Shown: positions 15,349 through 36,597, numbered from the stretch's first letter. The stretch is DNA of 64,000 nucleotides from Bacteroidota bacterium (GCA_039028335.1 JBCCIF010000002.1:12317-76316), one strand, 5' to 3'. Numbers and translations: made by a program. The notes: a model not told the origin generated them from the sequence alone.

Positions 15349-18300
15349 TCAATTCAAAGAGTACTTGACGTTTTCAAATGCATCCAAAGCTTGCAAGAAA
15401 TCATTACTTGCTTCTATCTTTTTGGACTTTGAAGGCATGGAAATTGATTTTCCTTCCAAATCAAAGACCTCAAATTTCAAATTACAATTCCCTTGATTGG
15501 CTTTAACTAAGTCATTCAATTGACCGACAAAGTCTTGATTTAAATCACTTAACCTTAAAGATATTTTCACCTCTTTCGTTGAAGCTCCCATTATCTCTGA
15601 AAGCAATTCAATTCCAGTTATTTTGAACTCAACTTCCCCTTCTCGAAACCTGTGTTTTTGAACTCTTCCGTTAATCATGAGAAAATTCCCGATTTGGAAG
15701 AAATGTTTCATACGCAAATAGTCTTCGCCAAATAACACAAATTCATGCGTGGACTTGTAGTCTTCCATTTCAAAACTTCCAAAAGGCTTACCCTTTTTAG
15801 TTACCCGATGATTGACTTTAGTGACCATGCCGGGGAGTTTGAATAATGTATTCACATATCGTTCGATATCGGACATGACGGATAAATCTCCTTGAGCAAA
15901 ATGCTCTACTTGCTTCTTAAAATCATCTAAAGGATGCCCAGATACATAAATTCCAATAACCTCTTTTTCTTTTCTCAACATCTCTAAAGTCGACCAAATG
16001 TTTTCTACCTCTGGAACTTCAGGTTTTCTGATTTCTACTTCCAGGGAATCTCCAAATAAATCAGGCGGGCGTTCATCATTGGCACGAAGCGCTTGCCCAA
16101 ACTTCATCATATCTTCCATAAAAGTCCGCTCTCCATCGTAAGGCACGATATATTTTGAGCGCATCAATCCAAAACAATCAAATGCTCCTCCTACGATCAA
16201 ATTCTCAATGCTGCGTTTATTCGCAGCTCTCAAATCAATTCGCGAGACCAAATCAAAACAATCGCTGTACTTACCGTCCTTATTTCGTTCATCAACAATA
16301 CTCTCGACCGCATTCGAACCAACTCCCTTGATTGCCCCCATACCAAAGCGGATTTCTCCCTTTTTGTTGACCGTAAAAAGGTAATCACTTTCGTTTACAC
16401 AGGGACCCAACACAGGGATTCCCATTTTTTTGGATTCCTGCATGAATTTCTCAACGGTCTTAATTTGATTGAGGTTATTACTCAGGAGAGAGGCCATAAA
16501 TTCTGCTGGATAATTTGCTTTGAGGTATGCAGTTTGATAGCCCAACAAAGCATAGCAGGTAGAATGTGACTTATTGAAGGCATAGGAAGCAAAAGCTTCC
16601 CAATCTTTCCAAATCTTATTGACCTTATCTTCGGGATGCCCATTGGATTGGCAACCATCAAGAAACTTTGGGAACATTTTATCCAGAACATCCTTTTTCT
16701 TTTTCCCCATGGCCTTTCTAAGGACATCGGCTTCACCCTTGGTAAAATTGGCCAACTTTTGTGATAAGAGCATTACCTGCTCCTGATAGACCGTGATACC
16801 ATATGTCGCTTCTAAGTGTTCTTTGCAATCCTCAAGATCGTACTTGATTTCTTCTTGTCCGTGTTTCCGCTTAATGAAAGATGGAATATAAGCCAAAGGT
16901 CCTGGTCGATAAAGGGCATTCATAGCAATGAGATCATCAAACTTATCAGGTTTCAAATCCTTCATATGCTTTCTCATCCCATCGGATTCATATTGAAATA
17001 TACCTACCGTTTCTCCTCTTTGAAATAGCTCATAGGTTTTTATATCATCGAGAGGGATATCATCGGCAATAATTTCAATATTGTGATTTTGCTTTACCAA
17101 AGCAATCGCATCATCAATGATTGTGAGGGTTTTCAATCCCAGAAAATCCATTTTCAACAAGCCTGCATCCTCCACAACAGAGTTGTCAAACTGGGTACAA
17201 ACCATGTCCGAATCTTTGGCCGTTGCAACAGGCACTAAATTGGTCAGGTCCTCAGGCGTGATGATTACACCACATGCGTGTATACCCGTATTTCGCACCG
17301 ATCCTTCAATAACTCTTGCTTGAGCAATGGTGTCGGCAGACTCTTCCTTTCCATTGGCAATCTTCATGAACTGCTGAACCTTATCGTATTGCTCGTTCTG
17401 AAAGCGATGTTTCAATTCCTTATCATCAAAAGAGAATAATTTCTTTAGAGATGTAAAGTCAGGAATCAGTTTCGCAATTCGATCAGCATCACTTAATGGC
17501 AATTCCATAACCCTCGCAGTATCTCGAATAGAAGACTTGGCTGCCATAGTACCAAAAGTTATGATCTGTGCTACATTAGATGCACCATACTTATTGACTA
17601 CCCATTCTATAATCTTATCGCGGCCGCGATCGTCAAAATCAATATCGATATCGGGAAGTGAAACCCTTTCCGGATTGAGAAAACGCTCGAACAGGAGATC
17701 GTATTTGATCGGATCGACATTCGTAATCCCAATACAATAGGCAACTGCAGACCCTGCAGCACTTCCTCTGCCCGGCCCAACAGAAACGCCCATTTTCCTG
17801 GCTTGAGAGGTGAAGTCTTGAACGATCAAGAAATATCCCGGATAACCTGTATTCTCGATTACGGATAACTCAAAATCCAACCTGTTCTTAATCTCTTCAC
17901 TTATTTCTCCATAGCGCTTTTTCGCGCCTTCATGCGTCAAATGTCTGAGGTAATTGTTTTCTCCTCGATTTCCATCGTCAGCATCATCTTGTGCATCTCT
18001 GAATTCTTCTGGAATATCAAATTTTGGTAAGAGCACATCATGACGGAGCGTGTAGGGTTCAAATTTTTCAAGAAGCCCGCTTAAATTGTCTATGCATTCA
18101 GGTAAATCTGCGAAAAGAGCGCGCATTTCGTCACTCGACTTGAAATAAAACTCCTCATTCGGAAATCCAAATCTGTAATCACGCCCCCTCTTTCCTGTGT
18201 ACTTTTTTGGTGTTGATTGATTCTCTGCGTCTTTCACACAAAGAAGAATATCATGCGCATTCGCGTCTTCCTTATCAATATAATAGGTGTTATTTGCCGC

Positions 18301-19653
18301 TATCATCTTCACATCCATCTCGCGTGCAAATTTTTGTAAGATCATATTTACGCGATCTTCTTCTGGCAAACCATGACGATTTAGCTCGAGATAAAAATCA
18401 TCTCCAAAAGTCTGGCTCCACCACAAACAGGCTTCTTGTGCCTGCTTCTCCCCAACATTCAATATTAAAGAGGAAATCTCTCCAAAAATCCCGCCTGAAA
18501 TGACCATTAAATCTTCCTTGAATTCCTCAATTAACTTTCTGTCAACCCGAGGCACATAATAAAAGCCATCTACATAAGCTTTGGAAGCCAATTTGATCAG
18601 GTTCTTATATCCTTGAAAATTCTTGGCCAATAACACTGTTGGAAAGCCGTTGTCTTTGACGGACTTATTGCTATGATCTTTGCACACATTCAATTCTATT
18701 CCCACAATACCGAGAATCTCATTCTGCTCACATGCATTTACGAACTGAAATGCACCGTATAGATTACCGTGATCAGAAAATGCAACAGCCGGCATTTTTA
18801 ATTCTTTGGCCTTTGCTACCAAAGATTTGACATTGGTGGTGGATTGCAATACGGAAAAGCCTGTATGGTTATGAATATGAAAAAATTCTCCTGTGCTTTG
18901 TTGAACATCGCTGACTTTTCCATACTCATCAATCACATCTCCTTCTTCCTCGAGGGCTTCCTCAGACAAGGGCGTATAAGGTTGTATGTTTAGGCCTATG
19001 GCCTGAATTACATCAGGATTATTCGTTTTGAATTCTGCGCGATCGATTTCATTCCAATCAAGCACCTCGTTTTTTAAAACATCTACGCGAATCAGTTCCA
19101 GAAAACAACGGGCGGTGGCCTCCACATCGGCACTGGCATTATGAGCAGCATCAAATCCCTCATTAAATAATTTGTGATGCAACTCCTCTAGTTTGGGGAA
19201 TTTGAATTTACCTCCTTTGCCTCCTGGTAATGCACAGAAATCTACGGTGCTCTTCATGGTGTCGACAAGTCCTATATCGCGAATAGAGCTTAACACACCA
19301 TAGCGGTGCATTTCAGAACCAACAACGTTTATGTCGAAACCAATATTATGCCCGACATTAAATTGTGCTTTTTGTAATGCTCGGTTAAACTCCTCAAGTA
19401 CCTGATGAACATCAACACCTTGTTTTATCGCCCGTTCTGTTGAAATCCCATGAATTTGCTCGGAATTATATGGAATGTCAAAACCGTCCGGTTTGACGAT
19501 AAAGTTCTTGACTTCAATCAAGTCCCCCTTTGCATCATGAAGCTGCCAGGCCAATTGCACCATTCGACAGGAATCATAAGCCTGAAGATCTGAATATGGT
19601 GCATCAAAATAGGCTGGAAATCCAGTCGTTTCTGTATCGTAGATGAGGAACAT
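15349..19653 (-). CDS. dnaE: DNA polymerase III alpha subunit with N-terminal DEDDh 3'-5' exonuclease (epsilon-like) domain
   Basis: 1434 aa. Exonuclease motifs are IYDTETTG (ExoI), VGHNIGFDINVV (ExoII) and HNASADVEATARCF (ExoIII). These are followed by a PHP domain (FFHIHNHTGFSVLQS), the pol III alpha core (GPGRGSAAGSAVAYCIGITNVDP, DIDIDFDD) and an OB-fold C-terminus. Confidence 0.95.
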   Translation of the reverse strand: MFLIYDTETTGFPAYFDAPYSDLQAYDSCRMVQLAWQLHDAKGDLIEVKNFIVKPDGFDIPYNSEQIHGISTERAIKQGVDVHQVLEEFNRALQKAQFNVGHNIGFDINVVGSEMHRYGVLSSIRDIGLVDTMKSTVDFCALPGGKGGKFKFPKLEELHHKLFNEGFDAAHNASADVEATARCFLELIRVDVLKNEVLDWNEIDRAEFKTNNPDVIQAIGLNIQPYTPLSEEALEEEGDVIDEYGKVSDVQQSTGEFFHIHNHTGFSVLQSTTNVKSLVAKAKELKMPAVAFSDHGNLYGAFQFVNACEQNEILGIVGIELNVCKDHSNKSVKDNGFPTVLLAKNFQGYKNLIKLASKAYVDGFYYVPRVDRKLIEEFKEDLMVISGGIFGEISSLILNVGEKQAQEACLWWSQTFGDDFYLELNRHGLPEEDRVNMILQKFAREMDVKMIAANNTYYIDKEDANAHDILLCVKDAENQSTPKKYTGKRGRDYRFGFPNEEFYFKSSDEMRALFADLPECIDNLSGLLEKFEPYTLRHDVLLPKFDIPEEFRDAQDDADDGNRGENNYLRHLTHEGAKKRYGEISEEIKNRLDFELSVIENTGYPGYFLIVQDFTSQARKMGVSVGPGRGSAAGSAVAYCIGITNVDPIKYDLLFERFLNPERVSLPDIDIDFDDRGRDKIIEWVVNKYGASNVAQIITFGTMAAKSSIRDTARVMELPLSDADRIAKLIPDFTSLKKLFSFDDKELKHRFQNEQYDKVQQFMKIANGKEESADTIAQARVIEGSVRNTGIHACGVIITPEDLTNLVPVATAKDSDMVCTQFDNSVVEDAGLLKMDFLGLKTLTIIDDAIALVKQNHNIEIIADDIPLDDIKTYELFQRGETVGIFQYESDGMRKHMKDLKPDKFDDLIAMNALYRPGPLAYIPSFIKRKHGQEEIKYDLEDCKEHLEATYGITVYQEQVMLLSQKLANFTKGEADVLRKAMGKKKKDVLDKMFPKFLDGCQSNGHPEDKVNKIWKDWEAFASYAFNKSHSTCYALLGYQTAYLKANYPAEFMASLLSNNLNQIKTVEKFMQESKKMGIPVLGPCVNESDYLFTVNKKGEIRFGMGAIKGVGSNAVESIVDERNKDGKYSDCFDLVSRIDLRAANKRSIENLIVGGAFDCFGLMRSKYIVPYDGERTFMEDMMKFGQALRANDERPPDLFGDSLEVEIRKPEVPEVENIWSTLEMLRKEKEVIGIYVSGHPLDDFKKQVEHFAQGDLSVMSDIERYVNTLFKLPGMVTKVNHRVTKKGKPFGSFEMEDYKSTHEFVLFGEDYLRMKHFFQIGNFLMINGRVQKHRFREGEVEFKITGIELLSEIMGASTKEVKISLRLSDLNQDFVGQLNDLVKANQGNCNLKFEVFDLEGKSISMPSKSKKIEASNDFLQALDAFENVKYSLN

Positions 19654-20626: not shown

Positions 20627-21637
20627 ATGCCTACAAAAATCAGGCTTCAGAGACACGGAAAGAAGCGTTACCCTTATTATTATATCGTAGCCGTAGACGG
20701 CAGAGAAAAGAGAGATGGAAAGTACATTGAGCGTTTGGGAGAATATGACCCGAACACCAACCCAGCGACTATTAATCTCGATTTTGACCGCGCACTTTAT
20801 TGGTTGCAAGTTGGTGCTCAACCAACAGATACCATGCGAGCTATTTTGTCATACAAAGGAGTGATGCATAAAAATCACTTGTTGAATGGAGTCAAAAAAG
20901 GTGCATTCTCAGAAGATGAAGCAGAAAAGAGATTTGCTTCTTGGATGGAAGAGAAAGAATCTAAAATTAAAGCGAAAAGAGAAGGATTGATTGCTTCTGC
21001 AGATGCTGAATTGGCCGAAAGAATGAAAGCCGAAAAAGCCATAGCAGACAAACGAAGTGCTGAAATCTTGGCTAAGCAAGCTGCTGCTGCAGGTGTTATT
21101 GCTGCCGCTGCTGCTGGAGAAGCAGAAGATGCCGCTGACGTTGCAGATGAAGCAGGTGATATTGCAGAAGATGCTGCTGAGCAAGCAGAAGCCATGGCTG
21201 ATGTAGCCGAGGCTGCTGCTGAAGATGGCAATGCAGAAATCGCTGCCGAAGCTGCTGAAGCTGCCGAAGAAGCTGCTGCCGTTGCTGAAGAAGTTGCTGA
21301 AGTTGCGGAAGACGCGGCAAAAGAAGCTGAAACTGCGGCTGAAGCTGCTGCTGACATCGCTGAAGAAGCGACAGAAAAAGCTGAAGAGGCCGTTGAAGCT
21401 GCTGCTGAAGAAGGAACAGCTGAAGCTGTTGAAGCTGCTGAGAAAGCAGTAGAAGCTGCGGATGCTGCAACCGAAGCTGCTGAGGAAGCAGCTGAAGATG
21501 CTGCAGAAGCGAAAGAGGATGCAGAAGAAGCAAAAGAAGATGCAGAAGAAGCTGCAGAGGCCGCTGAAGATGCTGCTGAAGCTGCCGCTGAAGTAGCAGA
21601 AGAACAAGCCGAAGAGGCTGCTTCTGAAGAAGAATAA
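20627..21637 (+). CDS. rpsP: 30S ribosomal protein S16 with a long Ala/Glu-rich C-terminal extension
   Basis: The N-terminus MPTKIRLQRHGKKRYPYYYIVAVDGREKRDGKYIERLGEYDP...ALYWLQVGAQPTDT is canonical S16. Residues ~151-336 are low-complexity A/E sequence. Confidence 0.9.
   Translation: MPTKIRLQRHGKKRYPYYYIVAVDGREKRDGKYIERLGEYDPNTNPATINLDFDRALYWLQVGAQPTDTMRAILSYKGVMHKNHLLNGVKKGAFSEDEAEKRFASWMEEKESKIKAKREGLIASADAELAERMKAEKAIADKRSAEILAKQAAAAGVIAAAAAGEAEDAADVADEAGDIAEDAAEQAEAMADVAEAAAEDGNAEIAAEAAEAAEEAAAVAEEVAEVAEDAAKEAETAAEAAADIAEEATEKAEEAVEAAAEEGTAEAVEAAEKAVEAADAATEAAEEAAEDAAEAKEDAEEAKEDAEEAAEAAEDAAEAAAEVAEEQAEEAASEEE
21077..21637 (+). repeat. low-complexity degenerate GCT/GAA-rich coding repeat (Ala/Glu tail of S16)
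   Basis: Reiterated gaagctgctgaagaagc-type units. The region is open in several frames on both strands, which explains the long antisense ORFs in the ORF track. Confidence 0.7.
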
Positions 21638-21642
21638 TTTTT

Positions 21643-22164
21643 ATGGCCTTCGAAGGACATTACTATATAGGTAAGGTCGCTAGGCTATACAGTTACAAGG
21701 GAGAACTCTACATTCGATTGTATGTAAAGGACCCTGAAATGTATTTAGAAATGGAATCAATGTTCCTTGCTATTGAAGGGGAATTGGTTCCATTTTTTAT
21801 TGAATCCATCCAATTTGGATCCAAAGGGATGCTGCGTATCAAGTTCGAAGATGTTGACAACGAAGCAGAGGCTAAAAAACTTGTAAAAAAAGAAATCTTT
21901 GCGCCTAATTCATTTCTTCCCAAGGAAGAAGGAGAATTTCATGGTCATGAAATTCTAGGCTTTTTGGTCGTTGACCAAAAAGACGGTGAATTGGGAAATG
22001 TAGAAGATGTCATCGAACACAGCAGTAATCCGCTCATTCGTGTTGATCAGGGAGAACGCGAAATCCTTATTCCTTACCAAGATGAATTTATTATTGAAAT
22101 TAACTCTTCAAAAAAAAGAATTGAAGTTGATTTACCTGAAGGATTGATTGAGATGAATGACTAG
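21643..22164 (+). CDS. rimM: 16S rRNA processing protein RimM
   Basis: 173 aa, immediately downstream of rpsP (conserved synteny). It has a PRC-barrel-like C-terminus (HGHEILGFLVVDQKDGELGNVEDVIEHSSNPLIRV...EILIPY). Confidence 0.9.
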   Translation: MAFEGHYYIGKVARLYSYKGELYIRLYVKDPEMYLEMESMFLAIEGELVPFFIESIQFGSKGMLRIKFEDVDNEAEAKKLVKKEIFAPNSFLPKEEGEFHGHEILGFLVVDQKDGELGNVEDVIEHSSNPLIRVDQGEREILIPYQDEFIIEINSSKKRIEVDLPEGLIEMND

Positions 22165-23027: not shown

Positions 23028-23909
23028 ATGTTCAAAATACTATCCACACTATTGTTCGTATGCCTTATTAACCAAGGGCAAGCAGCAGAAAATATTTATG
23101 AACCGAAAGAGGAAAAGAAAACCTCTGAGGAAGTATATACAATCAATGTCAGCACGTCCGGTGTTGCCATTTCTCCTTCACGTGTACGATTTAATGTAAT
23201 GCCTGGTAAGTCGAAGACTCATCAGATTAAAATCAATAATGATACTGAAGAGGCCAAGGCATTTCGTGTAAAATTCAATGACTTTAACATGAACCAGTTC
23301 GGTAAAAGTCAATTCGTAGAACCCGGTAATGGTAAATATGGAATTTCCAATTGGGTAAGTGTTTCTCCATCATTTATTGAAGTGGCCCCCGGTGAGAAAA
23401 AAGAAGTCACCATTACCATTGATGTTCCCGATGACGAAGCGGGAAAAAAAGCAGCTTGGGGAATCATGATGATCGAAGAAGCAGCAGAAAGAAAAACACT
23501 TGAATACGACCAGAACAACAGCGACCAAATTTCATTTGGTATCGTTCCTACTCTGGCTTTTGGCGTTTTTCTTTATCAAAACCCTCCCGGTGTTTCAACC
23601 AATGAAGTTGAAATTCAAGATTTTTTAATTGAACAAAAAGATGAAAACTATTTTGTCAACATAGATGCGAAGAATGTAGGCACTGGAATTGCCTATTGCA
23701 AAGCTTATGTTGAATTAACCAACTTGAACAACGGTGAACAAGAGAAACTTTTGGTGAAATCTTTCACCATCGTTCCCGACCTCACCCGCGTTTTCAGTTT
23801 TGAACTACCCGAACATTTGAAAAACGGAAAGTATTCTGCTGTAGGGGTCATAGATTATGGCAACCAAGAGGAAATCGAAGCAGCGGAATTAGAATTTGAG
23901 ATCAAATAA
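23028..23909 (+). CDS. secreted two-Ig-domain protein, PapD-like pilus-chaperone candidate
   Basis: 293 aa with a signal peptide (MFKILSTLLFVCLINQGQA|AE). VAISPSRVRFNVMPGKSKTHQIKINNDTEEAKAFRVKF and VSVSPSFIEVAPGEKKEVTITIDVP resemble the PapD_N pattern (..tRviy....l.v.N....p..vq.w / tPPlfrlePg..q.vRi). A second beta-rich domain follows. The gene is confident. The function is inferred. Confidence 0.55.
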   Translation: MFKILSTLLFVCLINQGQAAENIYEPKEEKKTSEEVYTINVSTSGVAISPSRVRFNVMPGKSKTHQIKINNDTEEAKAFRVKFNDFNMNQFGKSQFVEPGNGKYGISNWVSVSPSFIEVAPGEKKEVTITIDVPDDEAGKKAAWGIMMIEEAAERKTLEYDQNNSDQISFGIVPTLAFGVFLYQNPPGVSTNEVEIQDFLIEQKDENYFVNIDAKNVGTGIAYCKAYVELTNLNNGEQEKLLVKSFTIVPDLTRVFSFELPEHLKNGKYSAVGVIDYGNQEEIEAAELEFEIK

Positions 23910-23954
23910 TTTTTATAAAACAAATGTTTACTAAACCCTTTAAAATTTAATGTT

Positions 23955-24737
23955 ATGAGAAAGTTGAAACTTATGATGTTGGCGGTGGTTGCAGGATTCT
24001 GCTTCCAGACGGCAAACGCACAGTTGATTGATGAGCAGGATGTAACGATTACAATGGAATTACAGCCAGTTCTTCAACTTGACATGAAAACCCCAAACCA
24101 GCTCGAATTTGTATTCGATGAAATTGAAGAGTACTACAGAGGTATTACTCAGTATGCAGCTACAGAATTAAAAGTAAGCTCAAGTGTATCTTGGGACCTT
24201 TATGCTGTAGGTAGATCTAATGGAACGAATTGCGCTGAGTGCTGGGACCAACAATTGGTTTACGGTTCTGGAGGTGTAACTTCTGGAGCACAAGCAAACT
24301 TACCTATGAGTCTTGTAGAATTGAGACAAAACAGAGCTAACTCTGGAGCAGGTGTTGCAACTAGTTTCCCAGATTACAACCAAGCATTCTCACCAGCAGC
24401 TACTGCTTCTGGAGGAAACAGCTTGTACGTAAACGGTGGTACTAATACACCTCCTGGTGTAAACGGTAAGTATATCGCAGGTCACTCTGGAACATCTGGT
24501 ACTCCTGGTACTGATGCTATGGTTGGTGGTTCTTGGATGACTCAAACTGGAACAGCATCTGATTACTACTACACAGTTGATTACAGAATTTTACCTGGTC
24601 TTCCTGCTATTTTCCCAATGGCATTTAACGAAGATGGGGTAACAGCTGAAGATTTATCTACAGTTTCTGCGACTGCTTATGCGCAGCCAGGTGTCTATAC
24701 AATGTACGTACAGTACGTATTGTTGGAAGACCAATAA
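23955..24737 (+). CDS. secreted Gly/Ser/Thr/Ala-rich subunit-like protein (candidate major fibre subunit)
   Basis: 260 aa with a signal peptide ending ANA|Q. The mature N-terminus has alternating hydrophobics (DVTITMELQPVLQL). The C-terminus is QPGVYTMYVQYVLLEDQ. A strong hairpin terminator follows the stop codon. Confidence 0.55.
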   Translation: MRKLKLMMLAVVAGFCFQTANAQLIDEQDVTITMELQPVLQLDMKTPNQLEFVFDEIEEYYRGITQYAATELKVSSSVSWDLYAVGRSNGTNCAECWDQQLVYGSGGVTSGAQANLPMSLVELRQNRANSGAGVATSFPDYNQAFSPAATASGGNSLYVNGGTNTPPGVNGKYIAGHSGTSGTPGTDAMVGGSWMTQTGTASDYYYTVDYRILPGLPAIFPMAFNEDGVTAEDLSTVSATAYAQPGVYTMYVQYVLLEDQ

Positions 24738-24746
24738 AAAGAATTA

Positions 24747-24787
24747 TCAAAGCCGGCTGAAGTCAGTCGGCTTTGAATTTTTTCTTT
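24747..24787 (+). terminator. rho-independent terminator/attenuator between the two subunit genes
   Basis: A 13-bp stem, tcaaagccggctg (24747-24759) paired with cagtcggctttga (24764-24776), contains one G-U pair and a 4-nt loop aagt. It is followed by atttttctttc. Confidence 0.7.
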
Positions 24788-24805
24788 CACCTTAAACTAT
24801 TTTTA

Positions 24806-25420
24806 ATGTCACCTTTAAAACAAACCATAGTCGGTCTTTTCCTTCTACTAGTTTTGCCATTCAGTGCTCAGATTCACTGTGGCAATGTCGAGTTGAGCGT
24901 TGATGGAAGCACCAATGCTATGATTACTTTCGATGATTTTTCGAAGTATAATGGAGGTGTAACATTAAACAATGCACTTACGCTCAGAGTAAAAGTCGAT
25001 CACCAAGCTGTACCGGATCCCGATTGCAGTTGGTTCCTTAACATGGAAGTATTTAATAATCCTGGAGCAGGAACACCCATCGATGAATGGGAAGAATTGT
25101 TTCAATACGGAAGTGGAAGCTCTGACAATCCAGATCTAGATATTCTTGAAATTAGAATTCGCAACACATGCGCTACGTCTCCTTTAAACGGGACATTTCA
25201 GACCTTTACCAATAACGGTGATATTATGGATATCATTCAATCCATGTTACCTGTAACGCCCGCAGGTTCATGTACAAGCAATGTAAACGGTCCTGGAGAT
25301 TTCAATACCAATTATGATGAATTCACATTCACCGTGGATATTCGAGTGCGACCTACGCTCAATTACAATCCCGGTATATATGAAATGAGTGTGCGTTTTC
25401 ATCTTGAAGAAAACCTATGA
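24806..25420 (+). CDS. secreted subunit-like protein, paralog of 23955-24737 (candidate minor subunit)
   Basis: The ORF-track TTG start (24773) lies inside the terminator stem. ATG 24806 gives MSPLKQTIVGLFLLLVLPFSA|Q. It shares ITFDDFSKYNGGVT and C-terminal NPGIYEMSVRFHLEENL with the upstream subunit and has four Cys residues. Confidence 0.55.
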   Translation: MSPLKQTIVGLFLLLVLPFSAQIHCGNVELSVDGSTNAMITFDDFSKYNGGVTLNNALTLRVKVDHQAVPDPDCSWFLNMEVFNNPGAGTPIDEWEELFQYGSGSSDNPDLDILEIRIRNTCATSPLNGTFQTFTNNGDIMDIIQSMLPVTPAGSCTSNVNGPGDFNTNYDEFTFTVDIRVRPTLNYNPGIYEMSVRFHLEENL

Positions 25421-25432
25421 TCTAAGCCAACC

Positions 25433-28400
25433 ATGAAAAACATTTACCTTAAACTCTTTTTGGCTTTTCTTCTGCTTTTAAGCGTATCTTTTGTTAGCGC
25501 ACAAACAGAAGAAACAGCATTCCCCATTGACTCACTCAATCAGATCATTGACAACTCTACAGATACTATTCCTACTCAAGAAAATACGCCAGTAATTTCA
25601 AACACAGAAGAGCAAGTACAACCCTTTGTTAATCAAGACAGCCTAAACATCAAGCCTCCAAAAATGAACCGAGGTATTGAAATTTCTTTCGCCAAATCCG
25701 AACTAAAACCTGAAAGTGGCGAAATTCTTTCAAATGTTTTAAAAATTGTCAATCACAATACAGAGGCAAAAATCATCCTTCCAGAATACAACCATCCCGC
25801 TTCCTGGAAACTCGTAGGACAAAAGGATGTATGGTATGAAATTCAAGCAAACGATACCATTTATGTGCCCGTTCGAATCATTCCTCAGGCTATCGCTTCA
25901 GGGCAATCAAATTATCAAATAAATGTATTTATCTATAATGATAAAGGCATACAAATCCTAACTGATCATTTCAATTGTGTTACAGATAAAACTGTGCAAT
26001 GGAATGTACAGAATAGCGATGACAAAATTTACTTTAAGCATGGAGAAAACTGGGAGGATTTATCTTTCAACATCTCTAATACTTCGGTTTTTCCACAAGA
26101 GATTTTCATGACAACTGCTGCCGCTAAAGGCAGTTTGGCATTAAGTCGTGATGGAGAAGAGCTTGAAGAAGGTGAATCAAGCACTTTTCAATTGGATTCA
26201 TTTGAGGATACAACATTTACCTATACAGCGACTATTGACAACCTCCGAAGAAACTTCAGACGCGTTTCACTGCTTGGACACATTCCAAACAGAAACAATC
26301 AAACGAGAAGGTATTCAGTATACATGAATACACAAGAAACAAAGTCTGTTGGTCAAACCGATTATAGAAATGGATCGAAAATAGATCTTATAAAACTGGC
26401 CAATGTTTTGAGAGCTACTGAATACAGCTCAAACGATTTACCTCTTGATGTTCAAGCTAACTATCAGAATATTTTAGGTGACTTTCCTTTTCTGTCCATC
26501 AACATGAACGGATACAAGAATTTGAATAACGATGCCAGTTTAAACTACTTTACTCAACTTAATTATAACCAAGTCTTTTGGAATGCACAGAACTTGGGAA
26601 ATATTCCATGGTATTTAGGTTATTTTTCGAGAGAATGGACAGCACAAGCTGGAAACATCAATGGAGGAATCGTAGGAATGCCTGCTGTTGGAAAAGGTGT
26701 AAAAGGATCTTATTTCATAAATCCTCAGCACGAGGTAGGAGGATTCTTTACCTCTTCAAAAGGATTTCTTCAAACCGGTCATACTGACTCATACGGTATT
26801 CATTATCAATACAATTTCCCAAATAATGGCTTTGTCATGGGAAAACTCGGACGTTATACAAATGGCCTGAATGGCACATCTGGTAACGTATTAAGTGTGC
26901 AATCAAGCTACCGTCTCGCTGAAAAACACAGTATCGGAGCATTTGGAGGATTCAGTACGAGAAACTTCTTATGGGGAGGAATCATGACACCTCAAACAGG
27001 AGGACTATTCGGCCTCAACTATACTTCTCGATTTCTTGAAAATAAATTATTTGTGAATGTGGGAGGTCGATACAATTCCAAATTCTTTGGAAACTCGACA
27101 ACTGAAATCCTTACTTCAGACGCTAAAGTACAATATGAAATCAGCAATAAATGGTCAGTATTCTATTCTGGAAACTATGCAAATATTGATGCATTTAATC
27201 CAGCTACGGCATTCTTCAATCCATTTTCGAGCTATGATTTTTTCCAGAACAGAGTCGTTTTCACAACGACAAATAGATGGGGAACATTCAACCCAGGATT
27301 GTACTATAATTTCAATAAATTCTTCGATTACAATGTACAAGCAAGAGGACTCTCTCTTCGTTTTTCAAGATTGAATTATTTGAAGAACACTTTGCTTTCC
27401 TTTTACTCAGAAGCAGGATATACAGATAATAGAGGTCAAAGCGAAATTGGTGACTATTTCAATTTCAGAATGAATATGTTGTACCGAATTCGAACCTTGA
27501 CCTTAACAAGTAATTATCGCTACGGTGCCAACAATAAATCAGCACAAGATTATCAAACGGCTACCGGACAAGCGCCTCAGTTGGGAAGAATTAGCGCTTC
27601 ACACCAATACCTGTTCAACAATCAACATTGGATATTGGAAACCAACACCTCTTATACGTACAACAATCGATTTAAATCACAGTTCTTAGGAATTTTTCCC
27701 GAGCTCTTTTACTTCTCGAATAGTGGATGGAGATATAGTATAAACCCTGGATATACCGTAAGTATTACCAATTACAATGCTGATCTACTCAATCTCTATC
27801 AGAATGTGCCAATTAATTCAGATGATGTTGGAAGTAATGTAAACAAGGGATTTAGATTGAATGTTTCAGCAAGAAAAACCTTTGGAATTCCTATTCCATT
27901 TGTTAAACCACAAAATTCAAATATTTCCTACAACACCTTCTATGATTTGAATGGAAATGATGTACAAGATAAAGGAGAAACTGCTGTTCCCAATGTCGTT
28001 CTAAAGCTCAATGACTACGAAGTTCTTACAAATGACAATGGTTTTGCCTTGATCGAGAACTTGCCGCATGAAACGTATTATTTGCAATCATTCCCACTTG
28101 AAGATATGCAAGGTTGGTTTGCAAAGGTTCCAGATTCACTGGTAATTTCAACAGACATGATTATTCAAATCCCATTCGTAAGAGGAGTAAAAGTAATGGG
28201 AGATGTCATTTTGAATAGACAAGAAATAGCCGTTACAGATGAAAGACCTTTTGATTTATCCAATATCAGAGTTTCTGCAAATGACGGCAATAAAGTCTAC
28301 AGCACGCTTACTAATTTTGACGGTTCATTTGACTTGTATCTTCCAAACGGAAACTATACTTTGACAATTGACGAAAATATATTGGGAGACAAGTATTCTT

Positions 28401-28537
28401 TGCTTCAAAATAATATTGAACTTGACTTAAATAGCGAAATGGAAAACGTGTACACAAGTTTCTATATCGTAGAAAAAGAAAGAAAAGTGAAAGTCAAGAA
28501 GTTTGGTTCACAAGGAACAATCATCAAAAGAAACTAG
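25433..28537 (+). CDS. large secreted outer-membrane protein: N-terminal Ig-like region, Tyr/Asn/Gly/Phe-rich beta-barrel-like core, two C-terminal SdrD-B/carboxypeptidase-regulatory-like domains (usher-like candidate)
   Basis: 1034 aa with a signal peptide (LLLLSVSFVSA|QT). The core, ~aa 300-830, has amphipathic beta-strand periodicity. The C-terminus has YDLNGNDVQDKGETAVPNVVLKLNDYEVLTNDNGFALIENLPHETYYL and a second NFDGSFDLYLPNGNYTLTI module. Confidence 0.5.
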   Translation: MKNIYLKLFLAFLLLLSVSFVSAQTEETAFPIDSLNQIIDNSTDTIPTQENTPVISNTEEQVQPFVNQDSLNIKPPKMNRGIEISFAKSELKPESGEILSNVLKIVNHNTEAKIILPEYNHPASWKLVGQKDVWYEIQANDTIYVPVRIIPQAIASGQSNYQINVFIYNDKGIQILTDHFNCVTDKTVQWNVQNSDDKIYFKHGENWEDLSFNISNTSVFPQEIFMTTAAAKGSLALSRDGEELEEGESSTFQLDSFEDTTFTYTATIDNLRRNFRRVSLLGHIPNRNNQTRRYSVYMNTQETKSVGQTDYRNGSKIDLIKLANVLRATEYSSNDLPLDVQANYQNILGDFPFLSINMNGYKNLNNDASLNYFTQLNYNQVFWNAQNLGNIPWYLGYFSREWTAQAGNINGGIVGMPAVGKGVKGSYFINPQHEVGGFFTSSKGFLQTGHTDSYGIHYQYNFPNNGFVMGKLGRYTNGLNGTSGNVLSVQSSYRLAEKHSIGAFGGFSTRNFLWGGIMTPQTGGLFGLNYTSRFLENKLFVNVGGRYNSKFFGNSTTEILTSDAKVQYEISNKWSVFYSGNYANIDAFNPATAFFNPFSSYDFFQNRVVFTTTNRWGTFNPGLYYNFNKFFDYNVQARGLSLRFSRLNYLKNTLLSFYSEAGYTDNRGQSEIGDYFNFRMNMLYRIRTLTLTSNYRYGANNKSAQDYQTATGQAPQLGRISASHQYLFNNQHWILETNTSYTYNNRFKSQFLGIFPELFYFSNSGWRYSINPGYTVSITNYNADLLNLYQNVPINSDDVGSNVNKGFRLNVSARKTFGIPIPFVKPQNSNISYNTFYDLNGNDVQDKGETAVPNVVLKLNDYEVLTNDNGFALIENLPHETYYLQSFPLEDMQGWFAKVPDSLVISTDMIIQIPFVRGVKVMGDVILNRQEIAVTDERPFDLSNIRVSANDGNKVYSTLTNFDGSFDLYLPNGNYTLTIDENILGDKYSLLQNNIELDLNSEMENVYTSFYIVEKERKVKVKKFGSQGTIIKRN

Positions 28538-29910: not shown

Positions 29911-30033
29911 GCTAAAAAACAGCTGTCAATATTTTATTTCAAGATTGAATTAAAGAATTGTCAAAAAAAATTTACTTTGAACTGGAATCCATGAAATAAT
30001 ATTCATGTGCCTGATATTCAAGGCTTTGAACAA

Positions 30034-30050
30034 TTGGCACGGCATTTGAA
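30034..30050 (+). promoter_or_regulatory. candidate sigma-54-type promoter (-24 TGGCAC; -12 deviates)
   Basis: TTGGCACGGCATTTGAA, 83 nt upstream of ATG 30118. GG-N10-GA rather than the consensus GG-N10-GC. Confidence 0.35.
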
Positions 30051-30117
30051 TTTTAAAGCATGAAACCAAGAGAATCTTTTTCCGAACAGAGAGATTTCTC
30101 TTACAAATTATTGCAAT

Positions 30118-31482
30118 ATGAAAAATTTGAAATTTCTCTTATTCTTCTTTATCGCATTTGCATTTATTTCATGTGCCACGTCTAAGTCCTTTTATAAAAA
30201 GGGCATCAAATTAGACGAAGCAGGGATGTCCGAAGAGGCAGCTGAAATGTACATGAAGTCATTGGCCAAGAAAAACACCAATGTCAATTCAAAGATTGCA
30301 CTGAAGAAAACAGGTCAGCGTGCCTTGAATGAAAAATTAGATGATTTCAATAAATCACATATGCTGGAAGATCACGATCAGGCGGTATATGAATTTGAAA
30401 TTGCAAAGCTATTCTTTGACCGTGTTGATGGGTATGGAATAAAATTAGAATTACCCAATCATTACAAAGAGCGCTATGAAAGTTCTGTAGTTGTTTATAA
30501 AGAACAATTGTACATTGAAGGCGTGACTTTGTATGAAGCCAAAAACTACAGCGAAGCGACACGAAAGTTCAATAAGATTTCCGGCTACGATCCGACTTAC
30601 AAGGACATTCAAGATTATAAGGTATTGACTTTTGCTGAGCCTTTGTATGAAAAAGGGATGCTGGCTTACGAGCGAGAAGAATGGAGAAAGGCATACAAAT
30701 ACTTCGATCAAATTCATAAGAAGAATCCAGAATTTCGTGATGTAACCGAGTTATGGCAAAGCAGTTTGGATTACGGAACATTTCCAGTAGCTGTGGTGCC
30801 CTTTGAACATGCTCCAAGTGATAAAGCGAAAAGCGAAAAATTACACTCGAGTATTTTAGGTGAAATAACCTCGATAGACAATCCATTTGTTAAAGTGGTT
30901 GATCGGGAAAATATTGATCAACTTATTGAGGAGCAAACATTAGGATTGAGTGGGGTTGTTGAAGAAGGAACAGCTGCTCAAGTTGGAAAAATACTAGGGG
31001 CGAAAGGAATGATTACAGGAGAAATACTGAATTATTCTCAAAGCCTTGGAAGATTGAAAAAGAAGACGGTACAAGCTTTCGAAGCTTATCAAGTAACCGT
31101 AAAAAATGAAGAAACAGGAAAAGAAGAACAAGTAACAAAATATAAACCCGCCAAATATTTTGATTACTATAATAAAAATGAAATTACCTTTTCAGTTCAG
31201 TACAAATGTACTTCGCTTGAGACAGGACAAATCATCTTTTCTAAAGTGTATGAGAAAACGACCAGTGATGAAATTCATTACGCAGTGTTTAATGGCGAGG
31301 GTAAGAAATTGGTTCCTTCAAAAGATGGACAACCAACTACTAGAAGGCAAGATTATGATGCATTGCAATCTCTTTTGAGAGCAAATAAGACGCTTCTAAC
31401 TCCAGAAGAATTGATTAGTGCCCATTATGATGGCATTGGCACGGAATTGGCAAAAGAAATTGAAGATTACCTTGAATTTTAA
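30118..31482 (+). CDS. lipoprotein with N-terminal TPR-like region and C-terminal CsgG/HfaB-like domain
   Basis: 454 aa with lipobox FAFISC. The C-terminal half, FPVAVVPFEHAPS...FVKVVDRENIDQLIEEQTLGLSGVVEEGTAAQVGKILGAKGMITGEI, follows the CsgG-family pattern (VaV.pF.n...f.vveR..ld.v..Eq.l..sG.v.....a..lGk.lGAd.vi.G.v). Confidence 0.7.
   Translation: MKNLKFLLFFFIAFAFISCATSKSFYKKGIKLDEAGMSEEAAEMYMKSLAKKNTNVNSKIALKKTGQRALNEKLDDFNKSHMLEDHDQAVYEFEIAKLFFDRVDGYGIKLELPNHYKERYESSVVVYKEQLYIEGVTLYEAKNYSEATRKFNKISGYDPTYKDIQDYKVLTFAEPLYEKGMLAYEREEWRKAYKYFDQIHKKNPEFRDVTELWQSSLDYGTFPVAVVPFEHAPSDKAKSEKLHSSILGEITSIDNPFVKVVDRENIDQLIEEQTLGLSGVVEEGTAAQVGKILGAKGMITGEILNYSQSLGRLKKKTVQAFEAYQVTVKNEETGKEEQVTKYKPAKYFDYYNKNEITFSVQYKCTSLETGQIIFSKVYEKTTSDEIHYAVFNGEGKKLVPSKDGQPTTRRQDYDALQSLLRANKTLLTPEELISAHYDGIGTELAKEIEDYLEF
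31436..31452 (+). promoter_or_regulatory. candidate sigma-54-type promoter inside the 3' end of the preceding gene
   Basis: TTGGCACGGAATTGGCA satisfies GG-N10-GC and lies 48 nt upstream of GTG 31485. Confidence 0.4.
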
Positions 31483-31484
31483 GT

Positions 31485-32861
31485 GTGAAGAAAATTACAT
31501 ACATACTGATACTGCTATTCCTTACTTCTTGTGGAAAACAAAAAGTAGTGATTTCTTCTATCCCCGAAATTGTCGAGAAAAATGATGATCGCCCAATTTG
31601 GATAAAAGAAAGACCGCTGGGAGACTTTGAGTACATTGGAATTGGGGCTGCGAGCAAAGTCCGGAATCCGGATGAATACATGAAAGTGGCCAAGAACAAT
31701 GCTCTTTCAGATTTATCATCAGAGATTAAGGTAACAGTCCAATCGAATTCATTCTTGTACGTACTCGATCGTAAGTACAAATTTGATGAAGAATTCAGCC
31801 AGGGAATCCAAACGTTTACCGATCAAAATTTAGAGGGTTTTGAATTCGTAGACTCCTATGAAACTGAGTTTGAATATTGGGTGTATTACCGATTAAATCG
31901 GGCTTTGTACAAAGAGAATTTTGAAAAAAGAAGGCAGGAATCCATCAAAATAAGCCATGATCTATTGAATAAAGGGCAAGAGCAGCGCTATGAGGGAAAT
32001 GTTGAAGGTGCGCTTTCACTTTTTACAAAAGCATTAGGGTCCTTACGCGAATATTGGGGTGAAAGTAATAAGGTAATTACTTCTGAAGGAGAAATCTTTC
32101 TTGAAAATGAAATTTTGTTCAATTTGCAAGAAATGATGAATGACATTAGTCTTCAGCCGGCTACAGAACAAGTCATTTTGAATATGGACAATGACTATCG
32201 ATATAATTTCGCAGTTCATGTAATCAAGAATGGAAATCCATTAAAAAATGCAAAACTCGATTTTTGTTATCCTTCGCAAAAAGGACTTGCTGAAAAGCAC
32301 TTCATCACGAATGAAAACGGAATGTCCGTTGTTCAGATTGAAGACTTTGACAAAGACTTCAAAAAGGAAAATCTGGAAGTGGAAATGGATCTTGAACATT
32401 GGTTAAGTAATGCGAGCGAAATAGAAAAAGAAATACTGAAAATCGTTAAGCCCCGCAAATTATCCATTCCTATTTTGCTGCAGAAGCCCACGTTTTTCTT
32501 CGATGTAAAGGAAAGTAATTTAGGGAGTGATTTGTCATCACCTGTTATCAGTAATGTAATTAAAAATGGTTTAACAAAAAGAGATTTTAAATTGAGTAAT
32601 AATCGAAATGAGAGTGATCTAATTGTTCAACTTTCGGCTTCAACAGAACAAGCCGGAACAAGTTATAGCTTTCACGTAGCTCATTGCGATATGGAAATCA
32701 AGGTCCTCGACAAGAAAGGAAATATTGTTTATCAAAACGCATTTCACGATGTCAAAGGATTGAATGTAAATTTTGAGTCAGCGGGAATAAAAGCACTAAG
32801 TAATGTCGCTGAAAAAGTAAAGAAAACAATGATTAAAGATCTGATAAACAGTGTTTTATAG
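31485..32861 (+). CDS. LPP20-like lipoprotein with extended C-terminal region
   Basis: 458 aa with a GTG start and lipobox LFLTSC. RPIWIKERPLGDFEYIGIGAASKVRNPDEYMKVAKNNALSDLSSEIKVTVQS matches the LPP20 lipoprotein pattern. Confidence 0.65.
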   Translation: MKKITYILILLFLTSCGKQKVVISSIPEIVEKNDDRPIWIKERPLGDFEYIGIGAASKVRNPDEYMKVAKNNALSDLSSEIKVTVQSNSFLYVLDRKYKFDEEFSQGIQTFTDQNLEGFEFVDSYETEFEYWVYYRLNRALYKENFEKRRQESIKISHDLLNKGQEQRYEGNVEGALSLFTKALGSLREYWGESNKVITSEGEIFLENEILFNLQEMMNDISLQPATEQVILNMDNDYRYNFAVHVIKNGNPLKNAKLDFCYPSQKGLAEKHFITNENGMSVVQIEDFDKDFKKENLEVEMDLEHWLSNASEIEKEILKIVKPRKLSIPILLQKPTFFFDVKESNLGSDLSSPVISNVIKNGLTKRDFKLSNNRNESDLIVQLSASTEQAGTSYSFHVAHCDMEIKVLDKKGNIVYQNAFHDVKGLNVNFESAGIKALSNVAEKVKKTMIKDLINSVL

Positions 32862-32864
32862 ACT

Positions 32865-32881
32865 TTGGCACAGTTTTCGAA
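32865..32881 (+). promoter_or_regulatory. candidate sigma-54-type promoter (-12 deviates)
   Basis: TTGGCACAGTTTTCGAA, 52 nt upstream of ATG 32918. It shares TTGGCACRG...GAA...AAAG with the 30034 site. Confidence 0.3.
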
Positions 32882-32917
32882 AGTAAAAGAGTATAGAAAT
32901 TCAGAAAACCCAGAGAT

Positions 32918-33502
32918 ATGAGAATTATGAACATGAAAAGCATTGCAATGATAGGTCTAGTGGCCATCACAATGATAGGAACAGGATGTAAAAAGAAAAA
33001 AGAAGTTGTTAAAGCACCAGAAGGTGAAACTCCAATAACAGAATATTGTTCAGGTCCCGATTTCTTCAGCAGTAAGGACTATTTTAGAGCAAGTGGTTTA
33101 GGAGAGAGCATGGACCAAGCGACAGCGAAAAAGAAAGCATTGAACAATGCACGAGCTGATCTGGCTGCAACCTTGCAAGTGACCATTAATAGCGTAATCG
33201 ACAATTATGTTAATTCCAGAGAATTCAATAACAAGGAAGAAATTGAAGAGCGCTTTGAAGGATTGACAAGAGAAATTGTTAAGCAGAATATGGTAGGTGT
33301 AAAAACGATTTGCTCGCAGCCTGTAAAAGTGAATTCAACAGGAAACATAAAGTACTACGTTGCTTTAGAATTGTCAGGAGATGATATCGTTTCTAAATAC
33401 CATGAAAGAATTTCGAAAGATGAAAGATTGAGAATAGACTACGATTACGAAAAATTCAAAGAGACTTTCGATAAAGAAATGGAAAAGCTTGAAAACAGAT
33501 AA
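32918..33502 (+). CDS. LPP20 family lipoprotein
   Basis: 194 aa with lipobox MIGTGC (the true start may be ATG 32927 or 32933). YFRASGLGESMDQATAKKKALNNARADLAATLQVTINSVI is LPP20-like. Confidence 0.7.
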   Translation: MRIMNMKSIAMIGLVAITMIGTGCKKKKEVVKAPEGETPITEYCSGPDFFSSKDYFRASGLGESMDQATAKKKALNNARADLAATLQVTINSVIDNYVNSREFNNKEEIEERFEGLTREIVKQNMVGVKTICSQPVKVNSTGNIKYYVALELSGDDIVSKYHERISKDERLRIDYDYEKFKETFDKEMEKLENR

Positions 33503-33510
33503 TTGGTTTC

Positions 33511-33550
33511 ATCCTGTCCTGTGAAAACAGGGCGGGATTTTCTTATTTTT
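33511..33550 (+). terminator. rho-independent terminator after the LPP20 gene
   Basis: A 12-bp stem, atcctgtcctgt paired with acagggcgggat, contains two G-U pairs and loop gaaa. It is followed by tttcttattttt. Confidence 0.75.
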
Positions 33551-33554
33551 GGAT

Positions 33555-33944
33555 ATGCACAAAAACCTGATTCGCCTCTCTTCCATACTTATGATATTTG
33601 CAATAATATTGGGCGCTTTTGGCGCCCATTTTTTAAAGGCAAAAATATCAGAAAACCTAATTGAGGCTTATAAAACAGGTGTTCTTTATCATCTCATTCA
33701 TGCTCTGGCCCTCTTTGTGATAGGCGCCACACAGAAAACACTTAACTCAGTTTTAAACAAAGCTAAATTCTTTCTTTTCCTTGGAATAATTCTATTCAGC
33801 GGTTCGTTATACCTCCTAAGCATAAAGGAGTTAATCGAATTTCCATCGCTTTTTCGATTTGTCGGGAAACTAACACCGATAGGAGGAGTATCTTTTATTG
33901 TTGGATGGATTTTTATATTTCTATCCTTGAAAGATAAAAGTTAG
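33555..33944 (+). CDS. DUF423 domain-containing membrane protein
   Basis: LGAFGAHFLK...GVLYHLIHALALF with four TM helices. ATG 33555 is preferred over TTG 33549, which lies in the terminator T-tract. Confidence 0.8.
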   Translation: MHKNLIRLSSILMIFAIILGAFGAHFLKAKISENLIEAYKTGVLYHLIHALALFVIGATQKTLNSVLNKAKFFLFLGIILFSGSLYLLSIKELIEFPSLFRFVGKLTPIGGVSFIVGWIFIFLSLKDKS

Positions 33945-35763: not shown

Positions 35764-36597
35764 ATGTCCATGGGAAAAAAAATAAAGTCTATTTGGCTTA
35801 AAGAATATCCTCAAGCAGAAACTCTTAACGATGAAGTCAAAGGTTTGCTTATAGCTGCTTTTATCGTGAGCTTTATTCTCTTCGTTTTTCGCCCTTTTGG
35901 ACTGCACAATTATAAAGGATCCATGCTCTGGATTGCTCTTTGTTTTGGTGGAATTACTTTTGCCGTAGGCCTCATTCTCAACCTCATATTCATTGCTTAT
36001 TATAAGTTTCTCGGAAAACGCAGAACCTATCGTTTTGGAAATTGGATAGTCGAATCCATAATTCTGATCATAGCTATAGCCTTGGCCAATCTACTATTTA
36101 TGCGCTGGGGTTTAGACCAGAGATGGTCATTAGAAGCTTATTTCATGATGTTATTGAATACGTTCCTTATCGGCATTTTTCCATTGGCCTTCTTTGGATT
36201 AATTAATCAAAATAAAAGCCAAAAGAAAAATGAAAATTCGGCTAAAGACCTAAACACCGGAATAGCTTCAATAGATATAAATAAGCCATCCATTTCATCA
36301 ATATTTGCCATTGAATCTATGCAAAACTATATTCATATATACCGAAAAACTCATGGCGGATTCGAAAAAGAAATTGAAAGGAGCACCCTATCGTCTGCAT
36401 TAGAAAAATATTCAACAGAGGGGTTGATTAGATGTCATCGTTCGTTTTTGGTTAATCCGAATATGATCAAATCTGTCAGCGGAAACGCGCAAGGCTTAAA
36501 GCTTACACTCGTGCATGAAGAATGTCCGATCATTCCTGTTTCGCGATCATATATCTCTAAAGTGAAAGAAAATGTAATGCATGTTCCAGCTGCTTAA
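35764..36597 (+). CDS. membrane-anchored LytTR family DNA-binding protein
   Basis: 277 aa with four N-terminal TM helices and a C-terminal LytTR domain (IFAIESMQNYIHIY...LIRCHRSFLVNPNMIKSV). Confidence 0.8.
   Translation: MSMGKKIKSIWLKEYPQAETLNDEVKGLLIAAFIVSFILFVFRPFGLHNYKGSMLWIALCFGGITFAVGLILNLIFIAYYKFLGKRRTYRFGNWIVESIILIIAIALANLLFMRWGLDQRWSLEAYFMMLLNTFLIGIFPLAFFGLINQNKSQKKNENSAKDLNTGIASIDINKPSISSIFAIESMQNYIHIYRKTHGGFEKEIERSTLSSALEKYSTEGLIRCHRSFLVNPNMIKSVSGNAQGLKLTLVHEECPIIPVSRSYISKVKENVMHVPAA

Follow-up and report, generated by a model that had tools for sequence, protein, structure and literature searches.

What are three neighbouring lipoprotein genes doing in a bacterial genome when the first of them carries the name of the curli secretion channel and nothing that looks like cargo lies beside it? 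We met this question in a 64,000-nucleotide stretch of DNA from the metagenome-assembled genome of a Bacteroidota bacterium (GCA_039028335.1, JBCCIF010000002.1:12317-76316; 'the window' below means this whole stretch), where three consecutive genes, here called g1, g2 and g3, encode a CsgG-like protein and two further lipoproteins. A preliminary description, made from the sequence alone, had implied a CsgG/HfaB-type channel awaiting its cargo, and this is the part of it that fares worst below. Our answer is that the unit is not a curli-like secretion system and is best filed as an outer-membrane lipoprotein module. The reading we favour, to which we would give a probability of roughly 45%, is that the three proteins make up a lipoprotein scaffold without a pore, facing the periplasm and anchored under the outer membrane, where it has an organising role; g2 and g3 would be its core, and g1 a TPR-bearing adaptor in Flavobacteriales. 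The practical consequence is that the label 'CsgG/HfaB family' on a Bacteroidota protein should not be taken to mean curli-like secretion. In addition, the unit is a defined and testable module, present in cultured species such as Cryomorpha ignava, Pseudochryseolinea flava and Marinifilum fragile, which lets one study the role of LPP20/SHS2 lipoproteins apart from flagellar motors, and how general ring-forming scaffolds beneath the outer membrane might be.

Do the three genes really belong together? They form a three-gene operon for lipoproteins, bounded by an intergenic region and a terminator, since all lie on the same strand, head to tail and tightly spaced (a gap of 2 nucleotides between g1 and g2, and of 56 between g2 and g3), with 207 bp of intergenic DNA on the 5' side and an intrinsic-terminator-like hairpin on the 3' side. 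The hairpin starts 9 nucleotides past the g3 stop codon and reads ATCCTGTCCTGTGAAAACAGGGCGGGAT then TTTCTTATTT; its RNA fold of -22 kcal/mol (z = -3.9) was equalled by none of 200 shuffles. The sole sigma-70-like match upstream of g1 is a weak one (29971-30000, 9/12), and such matches were no commoner in the scanned region than in shuffles. All three proteins begin with a hydrophobic signal ending in a lipobox, and all three lipoboxes (FISC, LTSC and GTGC) fit the PROSITE PS51257 pattern when compared by eye; the preliminary description was therefore right to place three consecutive lipobox genes on the plus strand here. Given the many orthologues of each, these are real genes and not chance open reading frames. 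NCBI holds identical proteins (MEM7160928-30; g3 from a later start codon) under the names 'CsgG/HfaB family protein' (g1, MEM7160928.1), 'LPP20 family lipoprotein' (g2) and 'hypothetical protein' (g3), and what the preliminary description had noticed therefore agrees with the automatic annotation. Beyond the GenBank labels and the component superfamilies, which were already known, our literature searches found no paper on the operon as a unit, on the g2-g3 core, on the TPR-CsgG-like fusion or on the wide distribution in Bacteroidota, nor relevant work on CsgG with LPP20, LPP20 in Bacteroidetes, CsgG-like proteins with TPRs, DUF6175 or DUF4476.

The strongest evidence that we are dealing with a system comes from other genomes, which were compared using hidden Markov models of the three families in the best 80 of the 379 genomes (one genome per species) that matched the g3 profile. 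These 80 loci span Flavobacteriales and Cytophagales. Wherever a locus has enough flanking DNA on both sides, g2 and g3 are neighbours, and in all Flavobacteriales loci that hold the upstream DNA g1 lies directly upstream of g2, with the g1 stop and the g2 start overlapping by 4 nucleotides in 47 of 65 loci, which suggests translational coupling. The preliminary description had supposed that the triad travels together in relatives, and so it does. Indeed, the order g1-g2-g3 is kept in distant Flavobacteriales loci where g1 is down to 35-37% identity, and one locus (L088) has the triad in another genomic context, so that the linkage is not just frozen synteny. The g1 orthologues, all of about 455-460 residues and all with TPR and CsgG regions, are frequent among uncultured Flavobacteriales. 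In 18 of the 80 loci, from Cytophagales or their relatives (Chryseolinea, for example OZ245766.1, Ohtaekwangia, Pseudochryseolinea flava, Cyclobacteriaceae and Roseivirgaceae), g1 is not adjacent and g2-g3 stands as a two-gene unit. Conservation is graded, from 54-87% identity for g3 across the 80 loci to about 37% for g1 and about 28% for g2. The ancient conserved core of this system is g2 plus g3.

By profile comparison, the two core proteins are also relatives of one another: g3 and the N-terminal domain of g2 are paralogues, aligning by hhalign over 134 columns (probability 86%, E 5e-6), and a homologous insert sits at the same position in both. The preliminary description had assigned LPP20 domains to both, and for g2 this is plain from Pfam LPP20 (PF02169; 49.6 bits against a cut-off of 25.9), with residues 37-138 covering positions 1-96 of the 97 in the profile. 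For g3 the assignment holds through its homology to g2 and not through Pfam, where it scores 19.1 bits, below the same cut-off; 23 of 30 g3 orthologues match LPP20 at E<0.01, the best at 1e-4. The g3 protein, the most conserved of the three, found 1652 homologues, of which the 120 listed are 58-100% identical. Its insert region carries its most conserved motifs, DNYVNSRE and ERFEGLTRE, and besides the lipobox cysteine it has two invariant cysteines, Cys44 and Cys132, whose conservation is compatible with a periplasmic disulfide. The g2 family is likewise large, with 974 clusters (at 50% identity) of full-length relatives at E<=1e-30 in an exhaustive profile search, and its invariant residues all fall within the LPP20 domain, as do all but 4 of its 19 nearly invariant ones.

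How might such proteins work together? One guide is the FlgP/LPP20 family, in which an insert at this very position correlates with ring formation (PMC12222027). Cryo-electron microscopy has shown that Campylobacter FlgP builds rings through its insert between the SHS2 helix and the second strand, and that the FlgP fold is common to Lpp20 and FlgT (PMC12222027). We can therefore picture, as a working mechanism, g2 and g3 hetero-oligomerising by way of their LPP20 domains, through the conserved insert that both have past the SHS2 helix and ahead of the second strand, and g1 docking on this core, with its TPRs recruiting or positioning a further envelope partner. In Flavobacteriales, g1 would thus contribute a TPR docking surface together with an alpha/beta domain whose long beta-hairpins are soluble in water. 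Across all of the domains, the fold matches are to lipoproteins that sit beneath the outer membrane, namely CsgG, FlgT and the LPHT ring, HpaA and GNA1162 for g1, and LptE, PelC and HP1454 for g2. Lipoproteins of these fold classes (CsgG, PelC, LptE, FlgT, FlgP and HpaA) are in many cases ring-forming oligomers or partners that dock into a barrel. The canonical signal for lipoprotein surface export in Bacteroidota is C-X-K-(D/E)2 (PMC5080379), and since it is absent after the lipobox cysteine of g1, g2 and g3, a periplasmic orientation is likely. From all this we infer a location at the periplasmic side of the outer membrane, formation of a complex, an oligomeric or ring-like assembly, and a part in structuring or organising the envelope.

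Several points weigh against this scaffold, and we take them seriously. There is a faint likeness between the N-terminus of g3 (C-KKKKEV) and the divergent MucG export signal, KKEVEEE (PMC5080379), which raises a small doubt and leaves room for surface exposure of g3. The g2 insert is modelled at a confidence (predicted local distance difference test, pLDDT) of 30-47, with no clear beta-hairpin of the kind seen in FlgP, and the Foldseek structure matches have modest E-values (1e-5 to 1e-3) and low TM-scores. That g1, g2 and g3 bind one another and oligomerise is our own inference, and the label 'scaffold' of course names no cellular process.

A bolder version, which we consider improbable as things stand, is that beneath the outer membrane of Bacteroidota g2 and g3, with g1 as a third component in Flavobacteriales, assemble into a ring or lattice not seen before, which would correspond, outside flagella, to the FlgP/FlgT/FlgO disk and H-ring. 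Were it true, such a structure could serve to organise some other envelope machine, or its role could be the ancestral one out of which the flagellar disk proteins were recruited. The Vibrio H-ring (PDB 3W1E, 8Z5N) offers a precedent for the favoured scaffold as well as for this version, because it too combines an LPP20/SHS2-type lipoprotein (FlgP) with alpha/beta components, and FlgT is among the best fold matches of g1. In Vibrio cholerae, cryo-electron microscopy shows that the lipoproteins FlgO and FlgP, lipid-anchored in the outer membrane's inner leaflet, form concentric rings with FlgT that have no pore and that tether the motor to the outer membrane (bioRxiv 10.64898/2025.12.02.691832). 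The differences are that domain order and fusions diverge, with TPR, Ig-like and LptE-like additions at our locus, and that no flagellar gene was found in the window or in the related loci by Pfam scans. Bacteroidota are known for gliding rather than for flagella, and are not known to be flagellated. Furthermore, we obtained no sequence-level match of g1, g2 or g3 to FlgO, FlgP or FlgT, so that the likeness is one of fold. Another comparison is with the lpp20 operon of Helicobacter pylori (HP1454, Lpp20/HP1456 and HP1457; PDB 5OK8, 4KZS), which also gathers several LPP20-fold paralogues, and to which our proteins are tied by the PF02169 match of g2, by HP1454 as a fold match of g2, and by a weak match of the g3 profile to 5OK8 (E 0.55). 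The H. pylori proteins, however, are small, no TPR or CsgG-like protein accompanies them, and what they do is likewise unresolved (PMC11756786).

Is g1 nevertheless a channel? The idea here would be that g1 is an oligomeric outer-membrane secretion channel of the type of CsgG or of its holdfast-anchor homologue HfaB, with g2 and g3 as periplasmic accessories and the cargo encoded elsewhere. There is a real resemblance to explain: g1 has a lipobox and the core alpha/beta fold, scores above the gathering cut-off for Pfam CsgG (PF03783; 34.9 bits against 20.8), and all 80 of the orthologues tested match this family too. The fusion of a TPR-like region to a CsgG-like domain in the preliminary description is borne out by these scores, by TPR_2 (30.0 bits against a cut-off of 27) and by an AlphaFold2 (AF2) monomer model built from 80 orthologues (pLDDT 87.9), in which ten helices, modelled above 90, precede the alpha/beta domain. 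Solved CsgG chains top the Foldseek list of PDB matches for g1 (4uv3_A, E 5.2e-5; target-normalised TM-score 0.37-0.51). Non-channel lipoproteins, namely FlgT (both alone and within the Vibrio LPHT ring structure), HpaA/HP0492, CT253 and GNA1162, score much like CsgG in the same search, and the TPR part matches BamD, with designed TPR proteins also among the hits and TIGR03302 as a weak family match.

The hallmark of CsgG is a pair of amphipathic transmembrane beta-hairpins, TM1 and TM2, from which a 36-strand barrel is built. In the g1 model, long beta-hairpins (residues 314-329, 336-366 and 372-390) do lie at the TM1 position: using E. coli MG1655 csgG as the reference, TM1 falls opposite residues ~313-355 in an hhalign alignment that is weak (probability 2%, E 0.025) and served only to map corresponding regions. 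The same alignment places the invariant F229 and the nearly invariant P228 of g1 against the P-Y that opens the YPASNF segment of CsgG, which we take to be the constriction loop. What speaks against a barrel is the chemistry of the hairpin. Charged residues make up 16 of its 43 positions, compared with 3 of 21 in TM1 and 6 of 21 in TM2 of E. coli CsgG; this count alone is not decisive, because TM2 is itself 29% charged, and the argument is rather that both strand faces in g1 hold positions that are charged in 72-99% of 80 orthologues (314, 315, 318, 319, 322 and 325 on the first strand; 341, 343, 346 and 349 on the return strand). With conserved charges on both faces, neither face of the hairpin could contact lipid.

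Other evidence points the same way. The CsgG match of g1 is partial, residues 259-309 corresponding to positions 55-104 of 210, about a quarter of the profile, and the part that contains the hairpins is unmatched. Searching PDB sequences with the g1 family profile gave TPR proteins only and did not reach CsgG (the corresponding searches led from g2 to intimin Ig domains and from g3 to the weak Lpp20 match, and searches with the single sequences of g1, g2 and g3 returned no relevant match). A stretch of ~200 TPR residues, which CsgG and HfaB lack, separates the lipid anchor from the alpha/beta domain, and the partners at the locus are LPP20 lipoproteins, not CsgE/F/A/B or HfaA/D. Indeed, Pfam scans of 28 window proteins (most open reading frames >=120 residues between 3.6 and 49 kb) found no curli (CsgA/B/E/F) or holdfast (HfaA/HfaD) component, in agreement with the preliminary description, which had seen no curli cargo nearby; nor were these families among the 25 commonest neighbour clusters of the 80 loci, which were Pfam-checked only in part. 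Finally, g2 and g3 persist in Cytophagales without an adjacent g1, and the fibre-like operon upstream, described below, is not co-conserved with the triad. We therefore hold a secretion channel to be unlikely: g1 appears from its sequence and model to belong to the CsgG/LpoB/TolB-N-like fold class, yet probably forms no membrane barrel.

What, then, of the C-terminal part of g2? The AF2 model (pLDDT 84.3) places behind the LPP20 domain a helical hairpin, an Ig/Big-like sandwich (intimin in the profile search, E 5.5e-4; macroglobulin and intimin Ig domains by Foldseek) and an alpha/beta domain whose best PDB folds are Cj1090c (E 1.4e-5), LptE (1.7e-4, with LptE and Cj1090c matches ranging to 1e-3) and the PelC dodecamer (9.8e-4; PDB 5T11). 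The preliminary description had likened this domain to the CsgG/LpoB type; a broad lipoprotein fold of the LptE/PelC type is what stands, whereas at sequence level there is no profile similarity to g1. As a paralogue of the CsgG domain it was rejected, the g1-g2 profile comparison sharing only a TPR-like helix pair. The LptE and PelC matches, which are also to lipoproteins under the outer membrane, raise the possibility that all three proteins are accessories of a beta-barrel exporter encoded elsewhere, with this domain plugging or funnelling a barrel that carries polysaccharide or lipid, and with the g1 TPRs acting in the manner of PelB or BamD, which would suit the BamD and TIGR03302 matches. 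We would bet against this, because no barrel (LptD- or PelB-type included), glycosyltransferase or Lpt gene is co-conserved beside the operon, g2 has no Pfam LptE or PelC sequence match, and the domain, which in g2 follows LPP20 and Ig-like domains, is the least conserved part of the protein.

It is also doubtful that g1, as a TPR and LpoB-like protein, and its LPP20 partners activate or position a peptidoglycan synthase or hydrolase from the outer membrane in the style of LpoA and LpoB with PBP1A and PBP1B: LpoA does have a TPR-like domain, g1 shares the broad alpha/beta lipoprotein fold class with the PBP1B activator LpoB (PF13036), 64 of 80 g1 orthologues give sub-threshold matches to that family at E<0.01 and one relative has a peptidase gene nearby, but g1 itself stays under the cut-off (15.0 against 22.3 bits), is without the long disordered linker through which LpoB works, and has no penicillin-binding protein or amidase gene co-conserved in the 80 loci. 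The peptidase is of the M23 family, and its adjacency was seen in a single lineage. In Marinifilum fragile (L005 6144-12789) a same-strand cluster holds a 700-residue g2 homologue fused to a LamG domain, a g3 orthologue and four further genes, which encode a lipoprotein like LpoB/CsgG and FlgT_C (LpoB at 17.2 bits, FlgT_C weakly), a DUF6175 protein, a 322-residue protein that is LPP20-like by eye without a Pfam match, and the M23 peptidase, whose gene lies two genes downstream of that for the g3 orthologue. The pairing of an alpha/beta lipoprotein with an LPP20 lipoprotein thus recurs in another order. A further variant (L087, 899-6842) encodes a g2-like protein with DUF6175, a small protein that is LPP20-like by eye and a 365-residue protein with a faint ARM/TPR-type Pfam match. 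DUF6175 itself, judged by eye, seems to belong to the alpha/beta lipoprotein fold class as well.

Does the scaffold have a fourth member? The preliminary description had suggested looking for a co-conserved secreted protein in the neighbourhood of orthologues, and a secreted protein does turn up: directly upstream of g1 and on its strand, at least 34 of 58 loci (for example, L001 6852-7922 and L089 3649-4593) carry a gene for a secreted DUF4476 protein, which is absent from the window and its clade. In this protein a Thr-rich linker joins a small N-terminal domain to a DUF4476 domain that is C-terminal and holds two cysteines; the protein may be a fourth operon member or partner in most Flavobacteriales relatives. 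As an amyloid-like cargo it was rejected on composition, having no Gln/Asn repeats.

Coordinates of the operon, its domains and flanking features in the window
Feature	Residues	Position	Strand	Details
g1		30118-31482	+	454 aa; lipobox FISC, Cys19 at 30172-30174; open reading frame
g1 TPR-like helical domain	22-220	30181-30777	+	AF2, TPR_2
g1 CsgG/LpoB/TolB-N-like alpha/beta domain	222-454	30781-31479	+	AF2, Pfam, Foldseek
g2		31485-32861	+	458 aa; GTG start; lipobox LTSC, Cys16 at 31530-31532
g2 LPP20/SHS2 domain	37-138	31593-31898	+	Pfam LPP20, AF2
g2 insert in LPP20 domain	85-113		+	low-confidence AF2
g2 helical hairpin	139-186		+	AF2
g2 Ig/Big-like sandwich	221-301	32145-32387	+	AF2, intimin profile, Foldseek
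g2 LptE/PelC-like alpha/beta domain	325-457	32457-32855	+	AF2, Foldseek
g3		32918-33502	+	194 aa; lipobox GTGC, Cys24 at 32987-32989
Intergenic region 5' of g1		29911-30117	+	207 bp; presumed operon promoter region; divergent from minus-strand saccharopine dehydrogenase gene
Intrinsic-terminator-like hairpin		33511-33548	+	12-bp GC-rich stem, 4-nt loop, T-rich tail
Fibre-like operon		23028-28537	+	four genes; ends 1.58 kb upstream of g1

The neighbours of the operon in the window include housekeeping genes, for DnaE, S16, RimM, a methyltransferase, saccharopine dehydrogenase, DUF423, PEPCK and acetyl-CoA synthetase. The preliminary description had remarked on a fibre-like operon about 1.6 kb away with one opposite-strand metabolic gene in between, and both the distance and the gene (saccharopine dehydrogenase, on the minus strand) are as it said. 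This cluster encodes a WxLIP_PGBD/Ig-like protein, two proteins of unknown function and a 1034-residue protein with CarboxypepD_reg/SdrD_B-like C-terminal domains. Only the window and its two closest relatives, L004 (966-6520) and L007, have it at this place, with the methyltransferase gene on one side and the saccharopine dehydrogenase gene on the other, and it looks like a lineage-specific insertion. As cargo of the triad it was rejected, adjoining it elsewhere only in L004 and L007 while dozens of triad loci are without it.

Secretion of another kind is represented further downstream, where a plus-strand gene (45648-48968) encodes a protein of 1106 residues with Sortilin/BNR repeats, PKD domains and a Por_Secre_tail C-terminal domain, the mark of a type IX cargo, from which it follows that the organism has a type IX secretion system. 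Some of the housekeeping genes have oddities of their own. The S16 gene (20627-21637, plus strand) encodes 336 residues, of which only residues 9-67 form the S16 domain and the rest includes a ~200-residue Ala/Glu-rich, acidic, low-complexity tail, which accounts for a local rise in GC and for antisense open reading frames at 20875-21660; the tails of orthologues vary (the protein has 305 residues in L001 and 178 in L002). The DNA polymerase III alpha subunit (15349-19653, minus strand; 1434 residues) carries an N-terminal RNase_T/DnaQ-like exonuclease (residues 3-184, E 1.3e-11) ahead of its PHP and polymerase domains, a fusion also weakly seen in L001. A perfect GC-rich palindrome (33610-33628, TGGGCGC TTTTG GCGCCCA), with a T-run on the plus strand, lies within the DUF423 gene ~60 nucleotides past its TTG start and scored as terminator-like on both strands. 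Downstream of PEPCK, finally, a plus-strand gene (35764-36597) encodes a membrane protein that has a LytTR DNA-binding domain at its C-terminus and lacks a receiver domain.

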